Assembly (NCBI GenBank): GCA_945787525.1
Contig: CALZJC010000018.1
Span: forward strand, 1 to 44,635
DNA from: Thermoanaerobaculia bacterium
GTDB lineage: Bacteria > Acidobacteriota > Thermoanaerobaculia > Multivoradales > JAHEKO01
Reading direction: 5' to 3'
DNA length: 44,635 bases
The position numbers and the translations under genes were made by a program. This document shows, piece after piece, positions 1,504-27,449 of this stretch. The notes beneath the pieces are model-generated. The model worked only from the letters and a program-made list of their open reading frames with translations. It made no database searches and had not been told where the DNA came from. The first letter of the stretch is position 1, and each line of letters opens with the position of its first letter.

Positions 1504-1785
1504 GATAAGCTCCAGTTTCAAATGCACTTACAGCTTACCTGCGTCGTCGTTCAAGACTGTCCTTTCGGCACCACCCAGAGCTTCGTTGCACTGATCGAAG
1601 GACACCTACCTCCCGACGATGTGGCTGGGTAGCCTTCCCCCTTGACTGAGGCTCTGACGGCCGTGGCCGCCCCGAAGGACCGAGGACAGGGCTGAGCCCG
1701 GCGCGGAGCAGATCGGCCCCTTGAGCGGCGGCCAGCGGCCCTGAGACGGGGCTGAACTAAGTGCAGCTGGGTCTTGCGGGACCGC

Positions 1786-2442
1786 CTACTCGTCCGAGGT
1801 CACTTCGGCAAATACGCTCGCTGCCCACTCCCGGTCGATCTCCACCCAGCCGGTCTGGTCTTCCTCGCCCTGCGAAAGTGAATCGAGGAGTCTCTCGCCT
1901 GCCAACGACAGTGAAGCCCACGGCACACTGAGCCCTTGGCTCTCCTCGTTCACCAAGTGAGCGAACTGGACAGTCGTCTCCTCGTCGGATTCGTGGAGGC
2001 CGTCGTAGAGGAGTTCTCCTTCTTGGAAGGACGGCTCCTGGAGGCGGATCAAGAGCTTCGAGAGTTCGGTGACCCTATCGTCGAGTCCATCGTCGAAGAT
2101 CGAGATCTTCTCTATCAGCTCGTTGAAGCTCCGGACACGTCGCCTCATCAGGGAATCTGTGAAGACGCTCATCGGCCCGGACAGGAATGGGTCTTCGGGG
2201 ACGGGGTCGTCACCAGGCAGAAGCCAGATCATGAACTGCTGGTTCATGTCGTGGAAGAGCATCGGCCCGACCACTTCCGCCGTCTCGCCGCACTTCGAGC
2301 AGCAGAACGTCGTCAGTTCCCTGGAGAGGAGTTTCTCCTTGAGTTCAGGATCGAGTGAGACGTTCACGCTGTCGTAGTGCGTGAACGGCTGCTCGTGGCC
2401 GCAGCCGGGACAGGAGAGGTTGTCCTCAGAGAATCGGGTCAT
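1786..2442 (-). CDS. CpXC domain-containing protein
   Basis: CPGCG...SVNVSLDPELKEKLL...FCCSKCG...LFHD...ELIEKISIFDDGLDDR pattern typical of CpXC proteins. Confidence 0.8.
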   Translation of the reverse strand: MTRFSEDNLSCPGCGHEQPFTHYDSVNVSLDPELKEKLLSRELTTFCCSKCGETAEVVGPMLFHDMNQQFMIWLLPGDDPVPEDPFLSGPMSVFTDSLMRRRVRSFNELIEKISIFDDGLDDRVTELSKLLIRLQEPSFQEGELLYDGLHESDEETTVQFAHLVNEESQGLSVPWASLSLAGERLLDSLSQGEEDQTGWVEIDREWAASVFAEVTSDE

Positions 2443-2449
2443 GGCTCAG

Positions 2450-2788
2450 CTAGTCCTCGTGGAAGTTGGCGACCGCCTCGTTCTCGTCATCGAAGACCTC
2501 AGGGAACTCCACCTGTGCAACCGCTAAGATCTCCTTCAGCTCGCTGGGGAGGTGGACCACGCTGAGCGTCGCTCCGCGCTGGACGAGACCGCCATAGCAG
2601 GCGACCAACTCCCCGAGGAACAGGCTGTCCGAGGAAGTCACTCCCTGAAGATCCAGCAGGATCTTCTTGTCGCCCGAGTCGATCAATGTCGAGAACAGCT
2701 CGCGGAGCGCACCGGAGTTCGAGTCACCGACTCTGCCCCGAACATCGACAACTGTGACGCCTTGCCGTTTTCGTCTCGTTACCTTCAT
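2450..2788 (-). CDS. STAS-domain anti-sigma factor antagonist
   Basis: VTVVDVRGRV...ILLDLQGVTSSDS...EVFDDENEAVANF; 112 aa. Confidence 0.85.
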   Translation of the reverse strand: MKVTRRKRQGVTVVDVRGRVGDSNSGALRELFSTLIDSGDKKILLDLQGVTSSDSLFLGELVACYGGLVQRGATLSVVHLPSELKEILAVAQVEFPEVFDDENEAVANFHED

Positions 2789-2826
2789 CTCTCGGGCTGG
2801 CCTTCGGTCGGCTCTAGTATGAACCC

Positions 2827-3672
2827 ATGAGACTCGCCTGGGCGACAGATCTGCATCTCGATTCCGTCGAGCGATCCGACGTTGATCGGTTTTGCAGCGA
2901 TGTACTGGCGTCTGATGTGGCCGGACTGCTCCTTGGAGGCGACATCTCTCAGGCGCGGGACCTGGTCCACTGGCTGGAGTTCTTGGATTCTCAGCTTGAG
3001 CTTCCGATCTACTTCGTTCTCGGGAACCACGACTACTACGGCAGCGACATCTCGGCCGTCCGGTGTCGGGTGGCTGGTCTAGCGTCGCCGACGCTCCTTT
3101 GGCTCCCTTCGACTGGCTGCCTCACGCTGACCGAGAACGTCGTCCTGGTCGGGCACGGAGGGTGGGGAGACTGCCGCATCGGCGATACCGACAACTTCGA
3201 GATCTTGACCGACTACCTTGCGATCAGAGATCTCAGCGAGACGGTTGAGCGCCAGGATCTGCTCACCGGTTTCTCGGTCAGGGCTCCGCTCCGGCAGAGG
3301 TTGGCGTCACTCGGGGATGATGCTGCGGGTACGTTGCGGCCCCATCTGCTCGAAGCGGCTCAACCCGGCAAGACCGTGTTGGTCCTGACGCATGTGCCCC
3401 CTTATCGAGAGTCCTGCTGGCACCGGGGAAGGATTTCGGATGAGACTTGGCTTCCTGGCTTCACTTGCAGGGCTGTAGGTGATCTCCTGACGGAGGTGGC
3501 CGCCGAGATCCCGGAGTCGAAGTTCACGGTGCTCTGCGGCCACTCGCACGGGACCGGCTACGTGCGGATGCAGGACAACCTGGAGGTCTACACGGCGGAG
3601 GCAGAGTACGGGCGCGTCTTCTTCCGGATCGTGGAGTTGATTGGTCGAGAGGTGGCCCTCAGAGCCCCGTGA
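2827..3672 (+). CDS. Calcineurin-like metallophosphoesterase
   Basis: DLH, GGDI, GNHD, THVPP and GHSH motifs. Confidence 0.9.
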   Translation: MRLAWATDLHLDSVERSDVDRFCSDVLASDVAGLLLGGDISQARDLVHWLEFLDSQLELPIYFVLGNHDYYGSDISAVRCRVAGLASPTLLWLPSTGCLTLTENVVLVGHGGWGDCRIGDTDNFEILTDYLAIRDLSETVERQDLLTGFSVRAPLRQRLASLGDDAAGTLRPHLLEAAQPGKTVLVLTHVPPYRESCWHRGRISDETWLPGFTCRAVGDLLTEVAAEIPESKFTVLCGHSHGTGYVRMQDNLEVYTAEAEYGRVFFRIVELIGREVALRAP

Positions 3673-3711
3673 CAAGCGCCGGATCGAGGTTGTCTGTCAC
3701 CCGGTCAGCTC

Positions 3712-4677
3712 CTAATCAAGGCCGTCGCCGCTCAGAAAATACAGGCTCCCGGACTTCCGGAGTTCTCCATCAGTGCAAGCTCGCTCGAAGGCCGCCAGTA
3801 CATCATCTTCTGATTCAAACCCGTACTCGGACAGCCGACCCCGGACAAACTGTGTCAGAAAGCCGGGATCTATCCCATCGATCTCGCCGTTGTCTCCGAA
3901 ATCGAAGTCGACCCGGCTCTGAGGACCTTCGACGAGGCAGCCGTACCCATGCTTCATGTATCGCCTCCCGTCCGGGAGCCAACCCGACTGCGGAGAGCAC
4001 GAAAACAGGGCCGCCCACTCGATGTTGCTTGTGGGGCGGAGAACGCCAGCGACTTCGAGAAGCCGGACAGCTTCAGCTACCGCCCGTCGATAGTCTGCGA
4101 TCAACCGTTGAAATCCAGCGTCCATCTCTAGTGGTCCGACGCCGCCGGATCGAGATTGCCTGTCACCAGTCGGTTTGTGGAGAGCTTCTAGAGCTTCCTC
4201 GCGGCTGTCGTAGAACCTCATCAAGGGGCCGACAGAATGGGGGAGTACAGAAAGCGGAGGTAGCTTCAGGACCCCGACAATCGCTGCTTCTCGGTGCCTA
4301 GCCTCGACGACTGCCTGCGCCGGATCACCCAACGCTTCTGAGTCGAAGTGAGTCTCTTGACTGAGGTCTAGGACGATGAGAGGAGCCTCATCGTTCGAGA
4401 CAGGAGGCGGAGGTGGAGGTAGCCTCAGGACCCCGACAATCGCTGCTTCGCGGTGCCTAGCCTCGACGACAGCCTGCGCCAGGTCGCCCAACGCTGCTAA
4501 GTCGAAGTGAGTCGCTTGACGGAGGTCTACGACGATGCGACGAGCCCCATCGTTCAAGACCCCCGTCACGGAGTCCTCAATGGAGGCGGGCGACTGGTGG
4601 GAGAGATCCCCACTGACGTTAATGACCACCACGTCATCGAGGTGCTCGATTCGGATTGTTGCTGTCTGTCGGCTCAT
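3712..4677 (-). CDS. STAS-like protein with internal duplication, fused to a DUF6896-like C-terminal domain
   Basis: N-terminus has VVVINVSGDL...IVVDL...FYDSREEAL (STAS-like); C-terminus has KHGYGC...VDFDFGDNGEIDG (recalled as DUF6896). Start chosen at ATG 4677. Confidence 0.6.
   Translation of the reverse strand: MSRQTATIRIEHLDDVVVINVSGDLSHQSPASIEDSVTGVLNDGARRIVVDLRQATHFDLAALGDLAQAVVEARHREAAIVGVLRLPPPPPPVSNDEAPLIVLDLSQETHFDSEALGDPAQAVVEARHREAAIVGVLKLPPLSVLPHSVGPLMRFYDSREEALEALHKPTGDRQSRSGGVGPLEMDAGFQRLIADYRRAVAEAVRLLEVAGVLRPTSNIEWAALFSCSPQSGWLPDGRRYMKHGYGCLVEGPQSRVDFDFGDNGEIDGIDPGFLTQFVRGRLSEYGFESEDDVLAAFERACTDGELRKSGSLYFLSGDGLD
4256..4560. repeat. Intragenic direct repeat, ~146 bp x2, period 159 bp
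   Basis: 4256-4401 aligns with 4415-4560 (e.g. CAGGACCCCGACAATCGCTGCTTC occurs in both); the protein repeats AQAVVEARHREAAIVGVL. Confidence 0.95.
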
Positions 4678-4876
4678 CGGAGCCTGAGACGAGTGTAACG
4701 CCCCGCGTTCCCGAGTGACCACAAGGGCATGGACCCCGATCTCTACCGGCCCCGCTTCCTCCTCGCCGCCCTGCGGAAGATCCACGCCCCGCCCGCCACC
4801 GAGAGGCGGCTGCTGGCCGCGTTCAGGAGGCGGTGACGGAATGCAATGCGGTGACAGGGTGACGGAATGACGGAAT

Positions 4877-5057
4877 GCGGTGACAGGCTACTCATTGAGG
4901 CCGAGGTTTGCGGCCCGTGGTATCAAACTGGGGAGCACGTCAGCGCACCGCGCTGCGTCACGCGGCACCCCTGGAATGACGACTCGGCAAAGCGAGCCAT
5001 CGTTTGGATGGACGGAAACGGACGTCGGCTCTTGGGTAATGAGTAGCCTGTCACCGC
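4877..5057. mobile_element. 181-bp non-autonomous element with 20-bp TIRs (copy 1), Y1/RAYT transposase-derived
   Basis: GCGGTGACAGGCTACTCATT (4877-4896) and its exact reverse complement (5038-5057). The minus-strand interior reads MARFA(R)VVIPGVP//VTQRG from ATG at 5000. Confidence 0.85.
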
Positions 5058-5394
5058 TGTCCCGCCCAGCGTTTCGTCTTGCCGCCGGTCTGCCGTAGCG
5101 CGCCGACCCCGGCGACCGGCGCAATTGGCGGCGGCAGAGCCAGCGCCGCACTGGCTCGACTCCGCGCCGGCGACGCAGGCGGAGACGTGTGCGCACTGGG
5201 GTAGCCCGCCGCAGGGGTCTCAGATGGAGCCAGAGCGGGTGGTGGCGGGATGGCTTCCCGGATGGGCTAGAATTCGGGCCAGTTAGCGCAAAAAGGAGGT
5301 CATCGTGCGGGGCAGAGGGGCCGGTCCGCTTGTTCTTGGTTTCGTTCTCGCCGGACACGTTGCTACGCAGAGGTCGGTAGACGGCGGTTAGTCG

Positions 5395-6351
5395 ATGGCT
5401 CCCTCGCGTCTCCTCGTCTCGGTACTCCTGCTGGGTGGGCTGCTCTTGCCGCAGGAAGCGGAGCTCGACGGCTTCAGATTACTGGTTGAAGCGGCGCGGC
5501 TGCTGGGCGACGCAGGCCTCGGCGGGCCGATCTGGCTCGACCCCGAGGGCAACCCGTTGCCGTTCGTCACCGACGCGGAAGTGGTCGACTTCCTGGCCAC
5601 CGCACGGGTGATCGACAGGCGGGAAATCGGGCACGGGATCACCAACCCCGAGCAGCTGCTCTTGGAGCGCGACGGCACTCGCGCCCATGCGGTCTTCCAC
5701 GACGTCAACGTCCACAAGACGCGGCAGCAACTGGACGGCCAGCTGGTGATGTTCTTCCGTGACAGCTACACCAATAACGTGGCCGCCTATGAGCTGAGCC
5801 GGCTGCTGGGGATCACCAACGTGCCACCGGCAGTGGTCCGAAAGGTCGGCTCCAACAAAGGCTCGGTCCAGATGTGGCTCGAGCAAGCGATCGAGGAGGT
5901 CGAACGCCGCCAGCGAGGTATCAATCCGCCGGGGACCTGGCGTCTGGCGGGGGCGGACATGTGGGTCTTCGACAACCTGATCAACAACATCGATCGCACT
6001 CAGGAGAACTTCGTCTACGATTCGCAGTGGAACCTCTGGTACATCGACCACACCCGAGCCTTCGGCCGCGGGCGCCGGCTTCCCAGCCCTGAGCGTGTGA
6101 AGCGCTGCTCGCGCCGCCTCTGGCAGGCGTTACGAGAACTGGACGAAGCCGAGGTGCGGAGGGTGCTGCAGCCCTATCTGGGCACCTACGAGATCGCCGG
6201 CGTCCTGCATCGGCACCAGCGGCTGCTCACGCTGATCGAAGAGAGGATCGCCCAGCGGGGAGAGGAGCGGGTTCTGTTCAGCTATCGGGACCCCCGGCCG
6301 CCCGTAGTCGTGCAGACCGAGAACGTGGATATCCCGGCGCCGCCGCCTTAG
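5395..6351 (+). CDS. Exported atypical kinase-like protein (PI3/4K-, HipA- or Fam20-like motifs)
   Basis: Signal-peptide-like N-terminus; AAYELSRLLGITNVPP, GSVQMWLE, FDNLINNIDR, WYIDHTRAF. Confidence 0.65.
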   Translation: MAPSRLLVSVLLLGGLLLPQEAELDGFRLLVEAARLLGDAGLGGPIWLDPEGNPLPFVTDAEVVDFLATARVIDRREIGHGITNPEQLLLERDGTRAHAVFHDVNVHKTRQQLDGQLVMFFRDSYTNNVAAYELSRLLGITNVPPAVVRKVGSNKGSVQMWLEQAIEEVERRQRGINPPGTWRLAGADMWVFDNLINNIDRTQENFVYDSQWNLWYIDHTRAFGRGRRLPSPERVKRCSRRLWQALRELDEAEVRRVLQPYLGTYEIAGVLHRHQRLLTLIEERIAQRGEERVLFSYRDPRPPVVVQTENVDIPAPPP

Positions 6352-6463
6352 CTAAACCGGCTGCGGGTTCTACTCGCTGCCGTGCGCGAGCCGACCCCAA
6401 CGCCAGAATCCGACTGGCAGACACTGGCCGAGTTCAAGCGGCCGTGACCGAGGTTTGCGGAAT

Positions 6464-6645
6464 GCGGTGACAGGCTACTCATTGGGGCCGAGGTTTGCAG
6501 CCCGTGGTGTCAAACTGAGGAGCACGTCAGGGCACCGCGCTGCGTCACGCGGCACCCCTGGAACGACGAGTCGGGCAAAGCGAGTCGTCGTTTGGATGGA
6601 CGGAAACGGTCGTCGGCTCTTGGCTAATGAGTAGCCTGTCACCGC
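6464..6645. mobile_element. 182-bp TIR element (copy 2), same orientation as copy 1
   Basis: Identical 20-bp TIRs (6464-6483, 6626-6645); interior near-identical to copy 1. Confidence 0.85.
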
Positions 6646-7005
6646 TGTCAGCGCAGGTGAATCCTGCAAACCAGATGGTCGCGGGCTGGTCACACACAAG
6701 GGGCAATCGAGGCGGGAACACCCTGGCGGGGAGTTCACATCTTTGCCTGCCGAGGCGGTTGATCAGTGACAGCCATGACAGTCGAACAGGCTACTCGCCA
6801 GCTCGATGCATGGTGTTCCGAGAGCCAGGGAACCAGACCACTCGAGCTGGATCCCGGACTGAGGCTCACAACAGAACGGGGTTGGACCATGAGCCACGGG
6901 GCACCTGGCCACGGGAGGTCCGGGCTATCCGAGATCTCGACTGATATGGGCGACTTATCGGACTTGATACCTCACCTGGCTTGGCGAGCCGGGGCCGCCC
7001 GGGGC

Positions 7006-7329
7006 CTAGCGAATCCGTAAGTGGGCGTCGTTTGCGCCGCGGGGCACAGGAATGGCTTTAACGCGACGCCCGCTGCGGGTCCACCACGCTTTGACGATTC
7101 GGCCCCGGCCTCCGACCACCAGCCAGGCAAGGTGAACGTCATTGGCACCTGGCGGCGCTAGATTGGGACGGCCGATGTTCCTGCGATCTCGCGTGAACTG
7201 AAGGATCGCGCGCACGACAATCGGCTTCTTCGCCGGCTTCTTGGCAACCCTCTTCTGCGCGACCTTCTTCTTGGCGACCTTCTTCTTGGCGGTCTTCTTC
7301 TTGGTGGCTCGCTTCTTGGCTGCTGGCAT
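7006..7329 (-). CDS. Small basic protein: Lys/Ala-rich N-terminus plus a duplicated GANDxHL motif
   Basis: ATG at 7329 with GAAAGGGG RBS; MPAAKKRATKKKTAKKKVAKKKVAQKRVAKKPAKKP; PPGANDVHL and PRGANDAHL. Confidence 0.7.
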   Translation of the reverse strand: MPAAKKRATKKKTAKKKVAKKKVAQKRVAKKPAKKPIVVRAILQFTRDRRNIGRPNLAPPGANDVHLAWLVVGGRGRIVKAWWTRSGRRVKAIPVPRGANDAHLRIR

Positions 7330-7569
7330 TCGAGCACCCCTTTCGGTTTTGATCACGCAGTCGCTCTCTGCGTAGTGCGCAATCAAGTATGTACTCACCA
7401 CACTATAGAGCTTCGACATGCAGGACGCCATGCGCGGCTGGCCGGGCTGTAGGTGCATCTGGCCTCCTCGATGTCGAAGCCCACCTGACCGGCGAGGTCG
7501 ATCTGCGGTTCAAAGCGGACTTCTTCCCACTCAAGCGTTTCGCCGACGCCAGCGCGCAAGCGGGGCCGA

Positions 7570-7659
7570 CAAGGTCCCACCCCAACAAGGTCCCACCCTC
7601 AAGAAGGTTCCACCCGAGTACCCCCAAGAAGGTTCCAAGAAAGGTCCCACCCGAGTACC
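7570..7659. repeat. Irregular tandem array of AAGGTYCC-core fragments
   Basis: Cores at 7571, 7587, 7604, 7629 and 7641; longest unit CAAGAAGGTYCCACCCGAGTACC. Confidence 0.85.
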
Positions 7660-7698
7660 GGAGCAGTCGGCTCGGCGAGTCTGGAATGCGGTTGAAAT

Positions 7699-7859
7699 GC
7701 GGTGACGGGCTAGTCATTGGGGCCGAGGTTTGCGGTCCGCGGCATCAAACTGGAATGCGGTGACAGGCTACTCATTGGGGCCAAGGTTTGCAGCCCGCGG
7801 TGTCAAACTGGGGAGCACGTCAGGGCACCGCGCTGCGTCACGCGGTACCCCTGGAACGA
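7699..7859. mobile_element. Truncated tandem copies of the TIR element (copy 3)
   Basis: A degenerate left end (7699-7752) is followed 58 bp later by a perfect left end (7757-7776) and interior sequence to ~7859; no right TIR. Confidence 0.8.
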
Positions 7860-8007
7860 GGACCCCATGCGGCCATTTCAACCCTTCCTGCCTGACCCAG
7901 CCACCTAATCCATCCAGGCCGACCCAGACCCTTACCCGGCCAACTTAGGTCGTTTCAACTGGCGTCTTGCCCTGAAACGGCGGCAAGGCGGCGTGTTGAG
8001 GGGCCAG

Positions 8008-8211
8008 CTACCTACAGGGGCCGCGCGTGTCGCCATGCCGGAGATGGGCATCGGCTGCTGGCGCGGGCACCTCCAAGGTCTTCTTTCCCTTGTGACAGAG
8101 GACCACCTTCTCTTGCCCTCTGCCCGGCGTCGGGTGCACGGTGGCTACACATCCCAGCCCGGCGAGCGCCGCCAGGGTCACTAGCAGCGTGATCAGTTGT
8201 CGTGCTCTCAT
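8008..8211 (-). CDS. Small putative lipoprotein with CHKG...AHLxHGDxxGPC motif
   Basis: Lipobox-like LAGLGC; VVLCHKGKKTLEV...AHLRHGDTRGPC. Confidence 0.75.
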   Translation of the reverse strand: MRARQLITLLVTLAALAGLGCVATVHPTPGRGQEKVVLCHKGKKTLEVPAPAADAHLRHGDTRGPCR

Positions 8212-8920
8212 GCGCCTATCGTATGCCCTCCGCCCGGCCCCTACGCCTCCAAACCTGCTGCGCCCATGAGCTGGGCTTCCCGCCTGACCGCCGGTGGCGC
8301 CGGCTCTGTACCCAAAGACTCCGACCGCTTCATCTGGCCGGTTCGCGGCGGCCAGTGACCGGCTCGTTGTAACGCCCCGCCCCCGACGCTAATCGCGGGA
8401 GCCACGGACGGCCCTGCCTGCCTGACCTGCCCGCCAGGGTGGCGACGCTCCGGCAGCGTGAGGCGTAATCTGAAGGCTGCCTCGATAAAGGCACGGCCAG
8501 GCGAAAGCCTGACTCCGCAAAGCCTCGGGTCCGAGAACACTTCCAGATCGCCGGGCTGCCGAAAGGCTGGCACGAGAGGAGGCCAGCATGTCCGTGCAGC
8601 GTGTGGTTGTAAGTTCGGTGAGGTCGACGCCAACGTGACGACCTACGAGAGGGGGAGGTCCTGCTGCGACATCTCCCCGTGCTCTTGCGCCGCGGTCAAC
8701 GCGTCCAGCGGGTGGGGGACGTCGGACGGCAGCAACATCGTCGTCTTGTCTACGGACTGCTGAGGCCCCCCTCCCCCCAGGCCCCGCCGGGGACGCGAGC
8801 AGTCTGTCGGACGGCGTGGGATATCGGAGGTCAGCGACCGGACGGGGTCACGGCGGCGAGGGCCAGGCTCGCGGCTTCTGGTACCCCCACGGCGACCTCG
8901 AGGCTAGTACGATTCGGCCC

Positions 8921-26623: not shown

Positions 26624-27301
26624 ATGCCGAGAGAGCATCGAATGGCCGCCGGCCGGTCGTCCGTATCGCTGGTCCTGGGCTTCACGGCGCTGGTGCTCGG
26701 TTCGGCCAGCGCTGGCGGCGACGAGCCGCAGACGGCCGCACCGCCGCCGTCATCGCTGGTGCGGGCCGCCGTCGGAATCGAGCACCGCGATGCGGGGCAT
26801 CTCCGGCCCCAGGAGCGGCGGCCGAATCCGCGGTTCACCGGCAACGGCGACGGTACGGTGACGGACAACCTGACGGGCCTGATCTGGCTGCAGGACGCGA
26901 GCTGCGCCACCCTGCCGCGAACGGATGACGCTGGCAGGGCGTTCGGGGCGATAGCGGTTTCGGCCGCCCTCGACCTGGCCGATCCCGAGTGCGGTCTCTC
27001 CGACGGTTCTCAGGCCGGGGATTGGCGCCTGCCGAGCCGCTTCGAGCTGGAGAGCCTGCTGGATCTGGAGTTCCACGACCCGGCGCTGTCGAATGCGGCG
27101 GGCACGGCGAAGTGGAGTGCCGGCGACCCGTTCTCCGGCGTCGAGTCGTCCTGCTACTGGTCGTCGGTTGCCCTGGCCAGCGACCCCACCTACGTCTGGT
27201 GCGTCGACCTCCTCGACGGCCTGGTCTTCTACGTCTACGAGGTCCACTACTACTACGTCTGGCCGGTTCGGGAAACGCGGGAAATGCAGGAAATGCAGTG
27301 A
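26624..27301 (+). CDS. DUF1566 (Lcl C-terminal-like) domain protein
   Basis: RFTGNGDGTVTDNLTGLIW, DWRLPSRFELESL, YWSS, YVWPVR. Confidence 0.9.
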   Translation: MPREHRMAAGRSSVSLVLGFTALVLGSASAGGDEPQTAAPPPSSLVRAAVGIEHRDAGHLRPQERRPNPRFTGNGDGTVTDNLTGLIWLQDASCATLPRTDDAGRAFGAIAVSAALDLADPECGLSDGSQAGDWRLPSRFELESLLDLEFHDPALSNAAGTAKWSAGDPFSGVESSCYWSSVALASDPTYVWCVDLLDGLVFYVYEVHYYYVWPVRETREMQEMQ

Positions 27302-27314
27302 CAGGCTACTCATT
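27271..27314. repeat. Solo end of the TIR element with GGAAATGCA stutters
   Basis: GCAGTGACAGGCTACTCATT (27295-27314, 19/20 match to the TIR) preceded by GGAAACGCG GGAAATGCA GGAAAT. Confidence 0.8.
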
Positions 27315-27449
27315 TCGCCAGCGTGGGGCTGCCGAAACCGTCATCGAGCGAGCGGCGCACTGGCCCGCGAGCCATCGCGGTGCGGCCCGTAGACGGGTCG
27401 GGCTTGCTATGGTTGGCGCCTCGAGCCAACTGATCTGGAGGGCCACACG

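Follow-up and report, generated by a model that had tools for sequence, protein, structure and literature searches.

Introduction

Elements in which a small HUH/Y1 transposase gene lies between terminal inverted repeats (TIRs) were described as TIRtrons, and their enzymes as TIRYTs, by Di Nocera et al. (2013). The accessible text of that study places a RAYT-like HUH/Y gene between TIRs with a GGGGWSAS-type motif, and reports TIRs dispersed also as singles, dimers, and groups (PMC3733652). Quentin et al. (2018) equated TIRYTs with subclass 2.1 of the TnpA-Y1 proteins (PMC6006769). In the portions of the literature available to us, this subclass, or RAYT group 1, is recognized by NHVH, WQ, and Y-x-x-x-NP motifs, a length of about 220 aa, and no GTAG-REP (PMC6006769, PMC5581495).

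For the E. coli REPtron enzyme, TnpA-REP, a 5'-phosphotyrosine link, a free 3'-OH, and strand joining in vitro are reported in the accessible text of Ton-Hoang et al. (2012, PMC3333891), who proposed nicking, extension, and attack on the 5'-phosphotyrosine as the route of BIME growth. Our literature search returned nothing on the cut site, strand, product, or activity of subclass 2.1/TIRYT enzymes, and the accessible text of Di Nocera et al. (2013) mentions no internally deleted copies, polar tip duplications, or biochemistry (PMC3733652). No description of the tip stutters reported below was found in the openly available texts. The element class is known, and the tip-stutter footprint is apparently unpublished.

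Here, we analyzed a stretch of 44,635 nucleotides (the window) from a contig of a Thermoanaerobaculia bacterium, the source genome, whose assembly comprises 550 contigs and is 89% complete.

Results and Discussion

Intact relatives of the element and its transposase

A preliminary description, made from the sequence alone, had linked a recurrent end motif in the window to an HUH transposase, and comparison with relatives bore this out. The motif is the TIR of an HUH/Y1 transposase element: in three relatives (G002, G023, and G064) it brackets an intact 220-aa Y1 gene in inverted orientation, as in TIRtrons. The TIR motif GGTGACAG corresponds to GGGGWSAS with one mismatch, and the exact form GGGGACAG occurs in 6% of 189 TIRs and also in distant relatives. 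A 17-nt core of the unit described below was present in 15 of 36 genomes of the same family and in none of 24 from other families. Named records with this core were mostly Acidobacteriota genomes from metagenomes, and a metagenome scan with a 25-nt pattern returned one locus.

The relatives' Y1 protein carries the NHVH, WQ, and Y-x-x-x-NP motifs, and residues H60, H62, Y119, N123, and P124 are invariant in 14 relatives. Near-full-length close homologues (E < 1e-79) were present in 13 of 44 family genomes, three of which had fed the profile. The best match of the protein model (pLDDT 86) was E. coli TnpA-REP (4ER8, E 8.8e-9), a fold shared with the REPtron enzyme. Based on its motifs, the protein would belong to subclass 2.1/group 1 (Quentin et al. 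2018; Bertels et al. 2017). That subclass is described, in the accessible text, as having a C-terminal helix-turn-helix domain; here the protein, searched as a whole, gave no Pfam HTH match, and the model has short helices at 156-205. The score against the NCBIfam RAYT model was 72 bits, below its cut-off of 80.

Membership in IS200/IS605 was considered and rejected, given Y-x-x-x-NP instead of Y-x-x-x-Q, a length of 220 aa, and TIRs instead of subterminal hairpins. The TIR profile contains no GT[AG]G foot of the REPtron kind, and Rfam had no match over the element. Single TIRs folded no better than shuffled sequences (z -1.7 to +1.3), leaving a strong per-TIR hairpin unsupported.

The window itself lacks the enzyme, and searches of the source genome with Pfam Y1_Tnp, the G002 protein, and a 14-sequence profile did not recover it in the 89% of the genome that is represented. 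The only match to the G002 protein was 11 aa inside copy 2 of the element described next.

An internally deleted TIRtron

What the window carries instead is an element of ~190 bp. Copy 1, whose whole extent is 4872-5061, has a TIR at each side; between them lie the start of the transposase gene (leader plus ~21 codons), an IS3 end, and ~19 bp from the gene's 3' end:

4872-4896, plus strand: intact TIR of the transposase-downstream type, copy 1
4897-4915, minus strand: putative remnant of the transposase gene, its final ~19 bp (5 of 7 relatives' gene ends share the motif and likewise lie 8 nt from the TIR; a short stretch and modest evidence)
4913-4942, minus strand: IS3-family right inverted repeat (30 bp), marking the internal deletion (100% over 28-29 nt to complete IS ends in G020)
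4943-5037, minus strand: HUH/Y1 transposase 5' leader and first ~21 codons, frameshifted, with the ATG at 5000 (73% over 101 columns to the intact G002 gene, E 3.7e-9)
5038-5061, minus strand: upstream TIR of copy 1, with TGTC as its outer tip

The window holds these further occurrences:

6459-6649, plus strand: copy 2, a miniature element with 94% identity to copy 1
7683-7751, plus strand: short tip piece (7683-7693) followed by a diverged 58-nt partial copy (7694-7751)
7752-7859, plus strand: copy 3, truncated and without the upstream TIR
27271-27316, plus strand: a solo TIR of the upstream type behind two tip pieces, the whole fused directly into an Lcl_C gene's end

Two copies are thus complete and one is truncated, and the three are alike over 103-106 of 112 nt (92-95%). 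Within the source genome the element was found on this contig only, and a 151-nt contig of the public run X4 matches the right end of copy 2 without differences. A sister of the IS, in G045, matches the NCBIfam IS3 transposase model (E 1.8e-65). The remnants between the TIRs (5' part, IS3 end, 3' part) show the element to be an internally deleted, or gutted, TIRtron whose multiplication followed the loss of the gene. G005 and G061 contain comparable deletion forms. In being 70-300 bp long, TIR-bounded, non-coding, and present in several copies, the element resembles MITEs as characterized in the accessible text of PMC3733652. It differs from them in that it is HUH- rather than DDE-derived, has captured an IS3 end, shows no visible target duplication, and has copies only within 3 kb.

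Fragments at the junctions

All fragments named in the preliminary description are in the assembly, each within 1 base of where it had been placed. Counting from the first G of GTGAC as 0, they read as follows:

4829-4871, plus strand: copy 1 stutter ladder, comprising TIR positions -3..+4 (host-like), -8..-2, -6..+6, -1..+4, and -8..-3 joined to +3..+4, from sequence reading and a tiling test
Copy 1 pieces: GGCGGTGAC at 4829, GGAATGC at 4838, AATGCGGTGACAG at 4845, GGTGAC at 4858, GGAATGAC at 4864, then the intact TIR at 4872-4896
Copy 2 piece: CCGAGGTTTGC at 6448, copied from inner position 6488
Copy 3 pieces: GGAATGCGGTT at 7683 and the 58-nt head-to-tail copy at 7694-7751
Solo-end pieces: GGAAACGCG at 27271 and GGAAATGCA at 27280, with the TIR from 27289

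In the tiling test, all 48 nt before copy 1 could be covered with pieces of the 25-nt TIR no shorter than 4 nt, whereas no tiling exceeded 22 nt at 200,000 positions drawn at random from the genome. Requiring 5 nt per piece reduced the observed value to 0, because the innermost piece is short. The ladder contains the junction from +4 to -8 three times, all identical, and would be consistent with a 13-nt unit that was later scrambled by two small duplications and one deletion.

Several of the original readings needed adjustment. The first piece of copy 1, GCGGTGAC, is present, but it is not purely end motif; judging by the homologous flanks described below, at least part of it is probably host sequence resembling the TIR core. 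TGTC does follow both right TIRs, yet it is no addition: on the minus strand it reads as TIR positions -7 to -4, a variant outer tip of the upstream TIR common to copies 1 and 2. The partial copy at copy 3 is indeed head-to-tail, but with 50 of 58 nt identical to copy 3 (86%) and 51 of 58 to copy 1, it is less alike than copies 1-3 are among themselves and is therefore no fresh duplicate. Treating the "left" junctions as one class mixed two ends, since copies 1-3 show the transposase-downstream TIR and the solo end shows the upstream type. The statement that the pieces are not target-site duplications stands; by eye, the two outer junctions of copy 1 share no word of 4 nt or more, and neither do those of copy 2.

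The pieces also differ in age. At the solo end, the outer piece has the consensus G at -1 where the inner piece and the TIR both have A, and the outermost piece at copy 3 retains the GG start that the adjoining 58-nt copy has lost. Some outer copies are thus older than inner ones, and because ladder pieces differ by substitutions, the ladders must have accumulated over time.

We also searched Logan contigs of five public runs (X1-X4 and X6). Among the matches listed, none crosses 4828-4871; low-depth contigs of run X1 are identical or nearly so to neighboring stretches. These contigs neither support nor refute the junction itself.

Tip copies across the TIR family

We collected 189 TIR instances and kept 183, six being dropped for short flanks or as near-duplicates. 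A stutter was scored where an exact copy of at least 8 nt covering -5..-2 lay within 60 nt outward. By this definition, outer-tip copies were found at 36 of 183 TIRs (~20%), spread over 12 of the 22 genomes or sources (genomes of relatives do not count as independent samples, though stutter pieces are locus-specific), and at 32 of 167 TIRs with the source genome removed. Background rates were much lower with swapped flanks (36/8798, 0.4%) and at random positions (37/1575, 2.3%). Inner tips gave 2/165 after removal of 18 rows in which the TIR was itself an outer ladder piece (12/183 before removal), and IS3 ends gave 0/11.

A position-blind scan of 100 nt around 159 innermost TIRs returned 61 abutting duplications. 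Of these, 26 start at -13..-4 and only 1 at 0..+49; another 19 start at +50..+99 and are, by inspection, mostly the partner TIR's tip seen from inside. Nearly all stutter copies are direct and lie on the outer side only. They occur at both transposase-upstream and transposase-downstream ends, and stutters in the same register are present at 4 of 13 further TIRtron loci whose TIRs differ in sequence.

Copies start between -12 and -5, with a mode at about -8, and end between -2 and +25. Conservation of the TIR begins at about -8, and several pieces include bases outside it. The clustering at the outer tip is what nicking there would predict. Breakpoints do not fall at fixed positions: starts cluster without sharing one base, and ends vary. 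A single fixed nick site was rejected: among 18 perfect duplications, -8 fits 10 and -9 fits 8, and -12 and -5 are also required. Microhomology in these 18 was 0, 1, and 2 nt in 7, 5, and 6 cases, never 3 nt or more; this is near the chance distribution (57, 27, and 11%), with the 2-nt class somewhat enriched. Unmatched gaps of 1-4 nt were present in 9 of 36 events.

The copied sequence is local. The adjacent TIR's own variable 5-mer appeared in 21 of 44 upstream pieces, against 2.1 expected from pooled alleles, where the 44 rows include chance matches and the 5-mer is present in 20 of 177 far flanks. In G023, 7 of 11 rows match exactly and cover six alleles, with six loci each copying a different local allele.

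The preliminary description had placed fragments at every left junction and read them as a footprint of how the element inserts. That generality was lost: 147 of the 183 tips are clean by the above criterion, an outcome that the description itself had named as refuting and that contradicts an obligatory footprint, and in G061 copies of one mini-element exist both with and without a stutter. The stutters are occasional, cumulative, two-ended, and local, and are no obligatory mark of insertion.

Flanks and genomic context

Two of the junctions abut related host sequence:

4729-4837, plus strand: copy 1 host flank, a short frame ending FRRR-stop, its last bases TIR-core-like (56/90 nt identical to the copy 2 flank)
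6343-6458, plus strand: copy 2 host flank up to 6448, then 11 nt (6448-6458) that duplicate an internal part of the element

The flank identity of 62% was never reached in about 200,000 random window pairs. Element-free homologues in G002 (C4:320408-320506) and in one contig of run X3 run past the same point; a flank profile search found only its three training sequences, making its scores circular. The homologous stretch is ~100 nt long with a short frame, and the element cuts both window copies at the same codon. Copies 1 and 2, 94% alike, thus sit at the same position of two flanks ending in a GTGAC-like word. That such similar elements occupy diverged flanks points either to more than one landing at a core-like site or to gene conversion at a later time.

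The solo ladder replaces the last codons of the Lcl_C gene (26624-27301). An 81%-identical homologue in G002 matches up to 27270 and then ends VRGGR-stop. The ladder starts exactly where this homology stops, which makes the tip a recombination breakpoint. Among 40 relatives, none showed a syntenic empty site for the island described below as a whole.

Other features surround the copies. A tRNA gene (1414-1500) is followed by a lower-GC island at about 1600-8600 (59-66% vs 69%) with unrelated genes and repeat remnants, and all three element copies lie in it. Within it, a STAS + DUF6896 frame contains a tandem duplication at 4256-4560 (period 159 bp, 90% alike). An Lcl_C-type gene is represented at 8330-8368 by its 3' end alone, and after it comes an 11-nt word that recurs at 4696. 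The stretch at 8481-8564 resembles a c-di-GMP-I-GGC riboswitch (46.6 bits, below the 59-bit gathering score), in a region conserved in several relatives.

Just before copy 3, at 7569-7680, lies a second ladder made of partial repeats of another motif, AAGGT[C/T]CCACCC. Motifs like it occur within 1.5 kb of longer (300-400 aa) Y1 genes at 4 of 18 loci, some with tandem duplications, and as an inverted pair at C184:3245-3293 of the source genome. The non-coding stretch at 7878-8106 has diverged copies in C242, C184, and C117 of the source genome and in G002:C20, and the last of these also has a second-motif ladder upstream. The second ladder is possibly the same process carried out by a second HUH family. 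Other TIR-dimer families of the GG[G/T]GACAG class, without an assembled transposase, are found in the source genome at C145:6000-6520, C12:2527-2605, C447:2848-2924, and C364:1-60. In G076, three related TIRtrons (L221, L224, and L227) have differing flanks, suggesting movement of whole units.

Proposed origin of the tip copies

The preliminary description offered HUH cleavage and ligation or template switching as the cause. Neither option serves alone as stated, because cleavage and ligation by themselves cannot add sequence; they are best merged, as a nick that primes synthesis. We infer a nick, a polymerase step, and a re-joining step, and consider it probable that the tandem tip copies were made in this way at ends already in place. 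The HUH/Y1 transposase would nick one strand about 8 nt outside the GTGAC core, within a window of about -11 to -6; a host polymerase would then lengthen the released 3' end by a short stretch copied from the element; and this extended end would be re-joined to the 5' end still held by the enzyme. The transposase would have been supplied in trans, or have acted while its gene was still present. With a nick near -8, the copies would be direct, lie outward, and follow the local template; their starts would cluster, their ends would vary, and microhomology would not be required, which is the pattern observed. In copy 1, repeated rounds and small slips (5- and 8-nt duplications and a 5-nt deletion) could have scrambled the ladder.

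Not everything fits. Three or more additional slips are required for the copy 1 ladder, no one re-entry base accounts for every copy, and no intact gene was found in the source genome. The 58-nt copy is too diverged to be a recent local copy; for a few pieces, this one among them, the joining of a new copy to an older one is the likelier source. Related enzymes need single-stranded DNA, and the weak folding of single TIRs counts against the proposed nick.

The same steps were proposed for amplification of the E. coli REPtron, which, in the accessible text, has GTAG-footed hairpins, is cut at many C|T sites on either side, and amplifies whole BIME units (PMC3333891). Here, in contrast, the pieces are smaller than a TIR, and their starts are confined to a narrow window to one side of a repeat that folds weakly.

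The strongest competing account assigns the transposase only the breaking of the tip, while host repair, by Ku/LigD end-joining or a slipping error-prone polymerase, writes the copies and seals the break. Ku is present in the source genome and in 4/4 relatives tested (5/5 in all), and together with the spread of starts over about 7 nt this makes host end-joining a possible joiner. The 1-4-nt gaps and the excess of 2-nt microhomology (6/18 vs 11%) are also in keeping with repair, as are the jumps of the copy 1 ladder to -6 and -1 and its deletion between two TG. Copies that are direct and confined to the outer side are, however, explained directly by a 3'-primed single-strand nick, and we regard repair as the sole writer of the copies as unlikely.

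Closest to the preliminary description is the view that stutters are made during insertion itself, when each incoming TIR-bounded piece joins at or into an existing TIR or TIR-like host site and leaves remnants of the old end. The 58-nt piece does look like an older copy cut by copy 3, copies 1 and 2 do share one position in 62%-alike flanks ending GTGAC-like, and the solo ladder does adjoin a truncated gene. Against this, the 147 clean tips indicate that insertion is possible without a stutter, and the copying of local alleles and of bases beyond the conserved TIR points to copying in place. We consider this view rather improbable.

Enzyme-independent replication slippage, at the purine-rich tip or on extruded hairpins of TIR pairs, could draw on A-runs at the tips and on the long stems that TIR pairs allow, and the small internal slips of copy 1 fit it. 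It is nevertheless very improbable as the general cause: direct repeats did not pre-exist, microhomology being limited to 0-2 nt, even duplications as long as 22-58 nt have their starts in the window used by the rest, and inner tips (2/165) and IS3 ends (0/11) are nearly or wholly free of copies. An assembly artefact, which would suit the 550-contig assembly and the absence of a public-run contig across 4828-4871 among those listed, is hardly credible because the pieces differ by substitutions and because 12 of the 22 independent genomes or sources show the pattern, with contigs of 0.9 and >1 Mb among them.

Implications for TIRYT enzymes

Under the favored sequence of nicking, extension, and re-joining, the stutters predict a nick at about -11 to -6 on the GTGACAGG strand, with synthesis running into the element. 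They also lend in vivo support to the nick-primed amplification model proposed for REP/BIME arrays. To the described TIRtrons, this window adds a non-autonomous derivative multiplied after gene loss and a hint of target choice.

According to the accessible text of PMC6006769, about 15% of the species sampled have subclass 2.1 Y1 enzymes. A broader reading, which we offer tentatively and hold to be doubtful as yet, is that TIRYTs, unlike ordinary transposases, are one-sided nick-and-rejoin editors that cut about 8 nt outside GTGAC, go on rewriting their own ends long after arrival, and join those ends to core-mimicking host sites. If this reading were true, it would explain the two near-identical mini-elements at the same codon of 62%-alike flanks and the solo end that replaces a gene's stop, and the stutters would map, across the genome, where a large HUH class cuts, with what polarity, and by what rule it chooses its targets.
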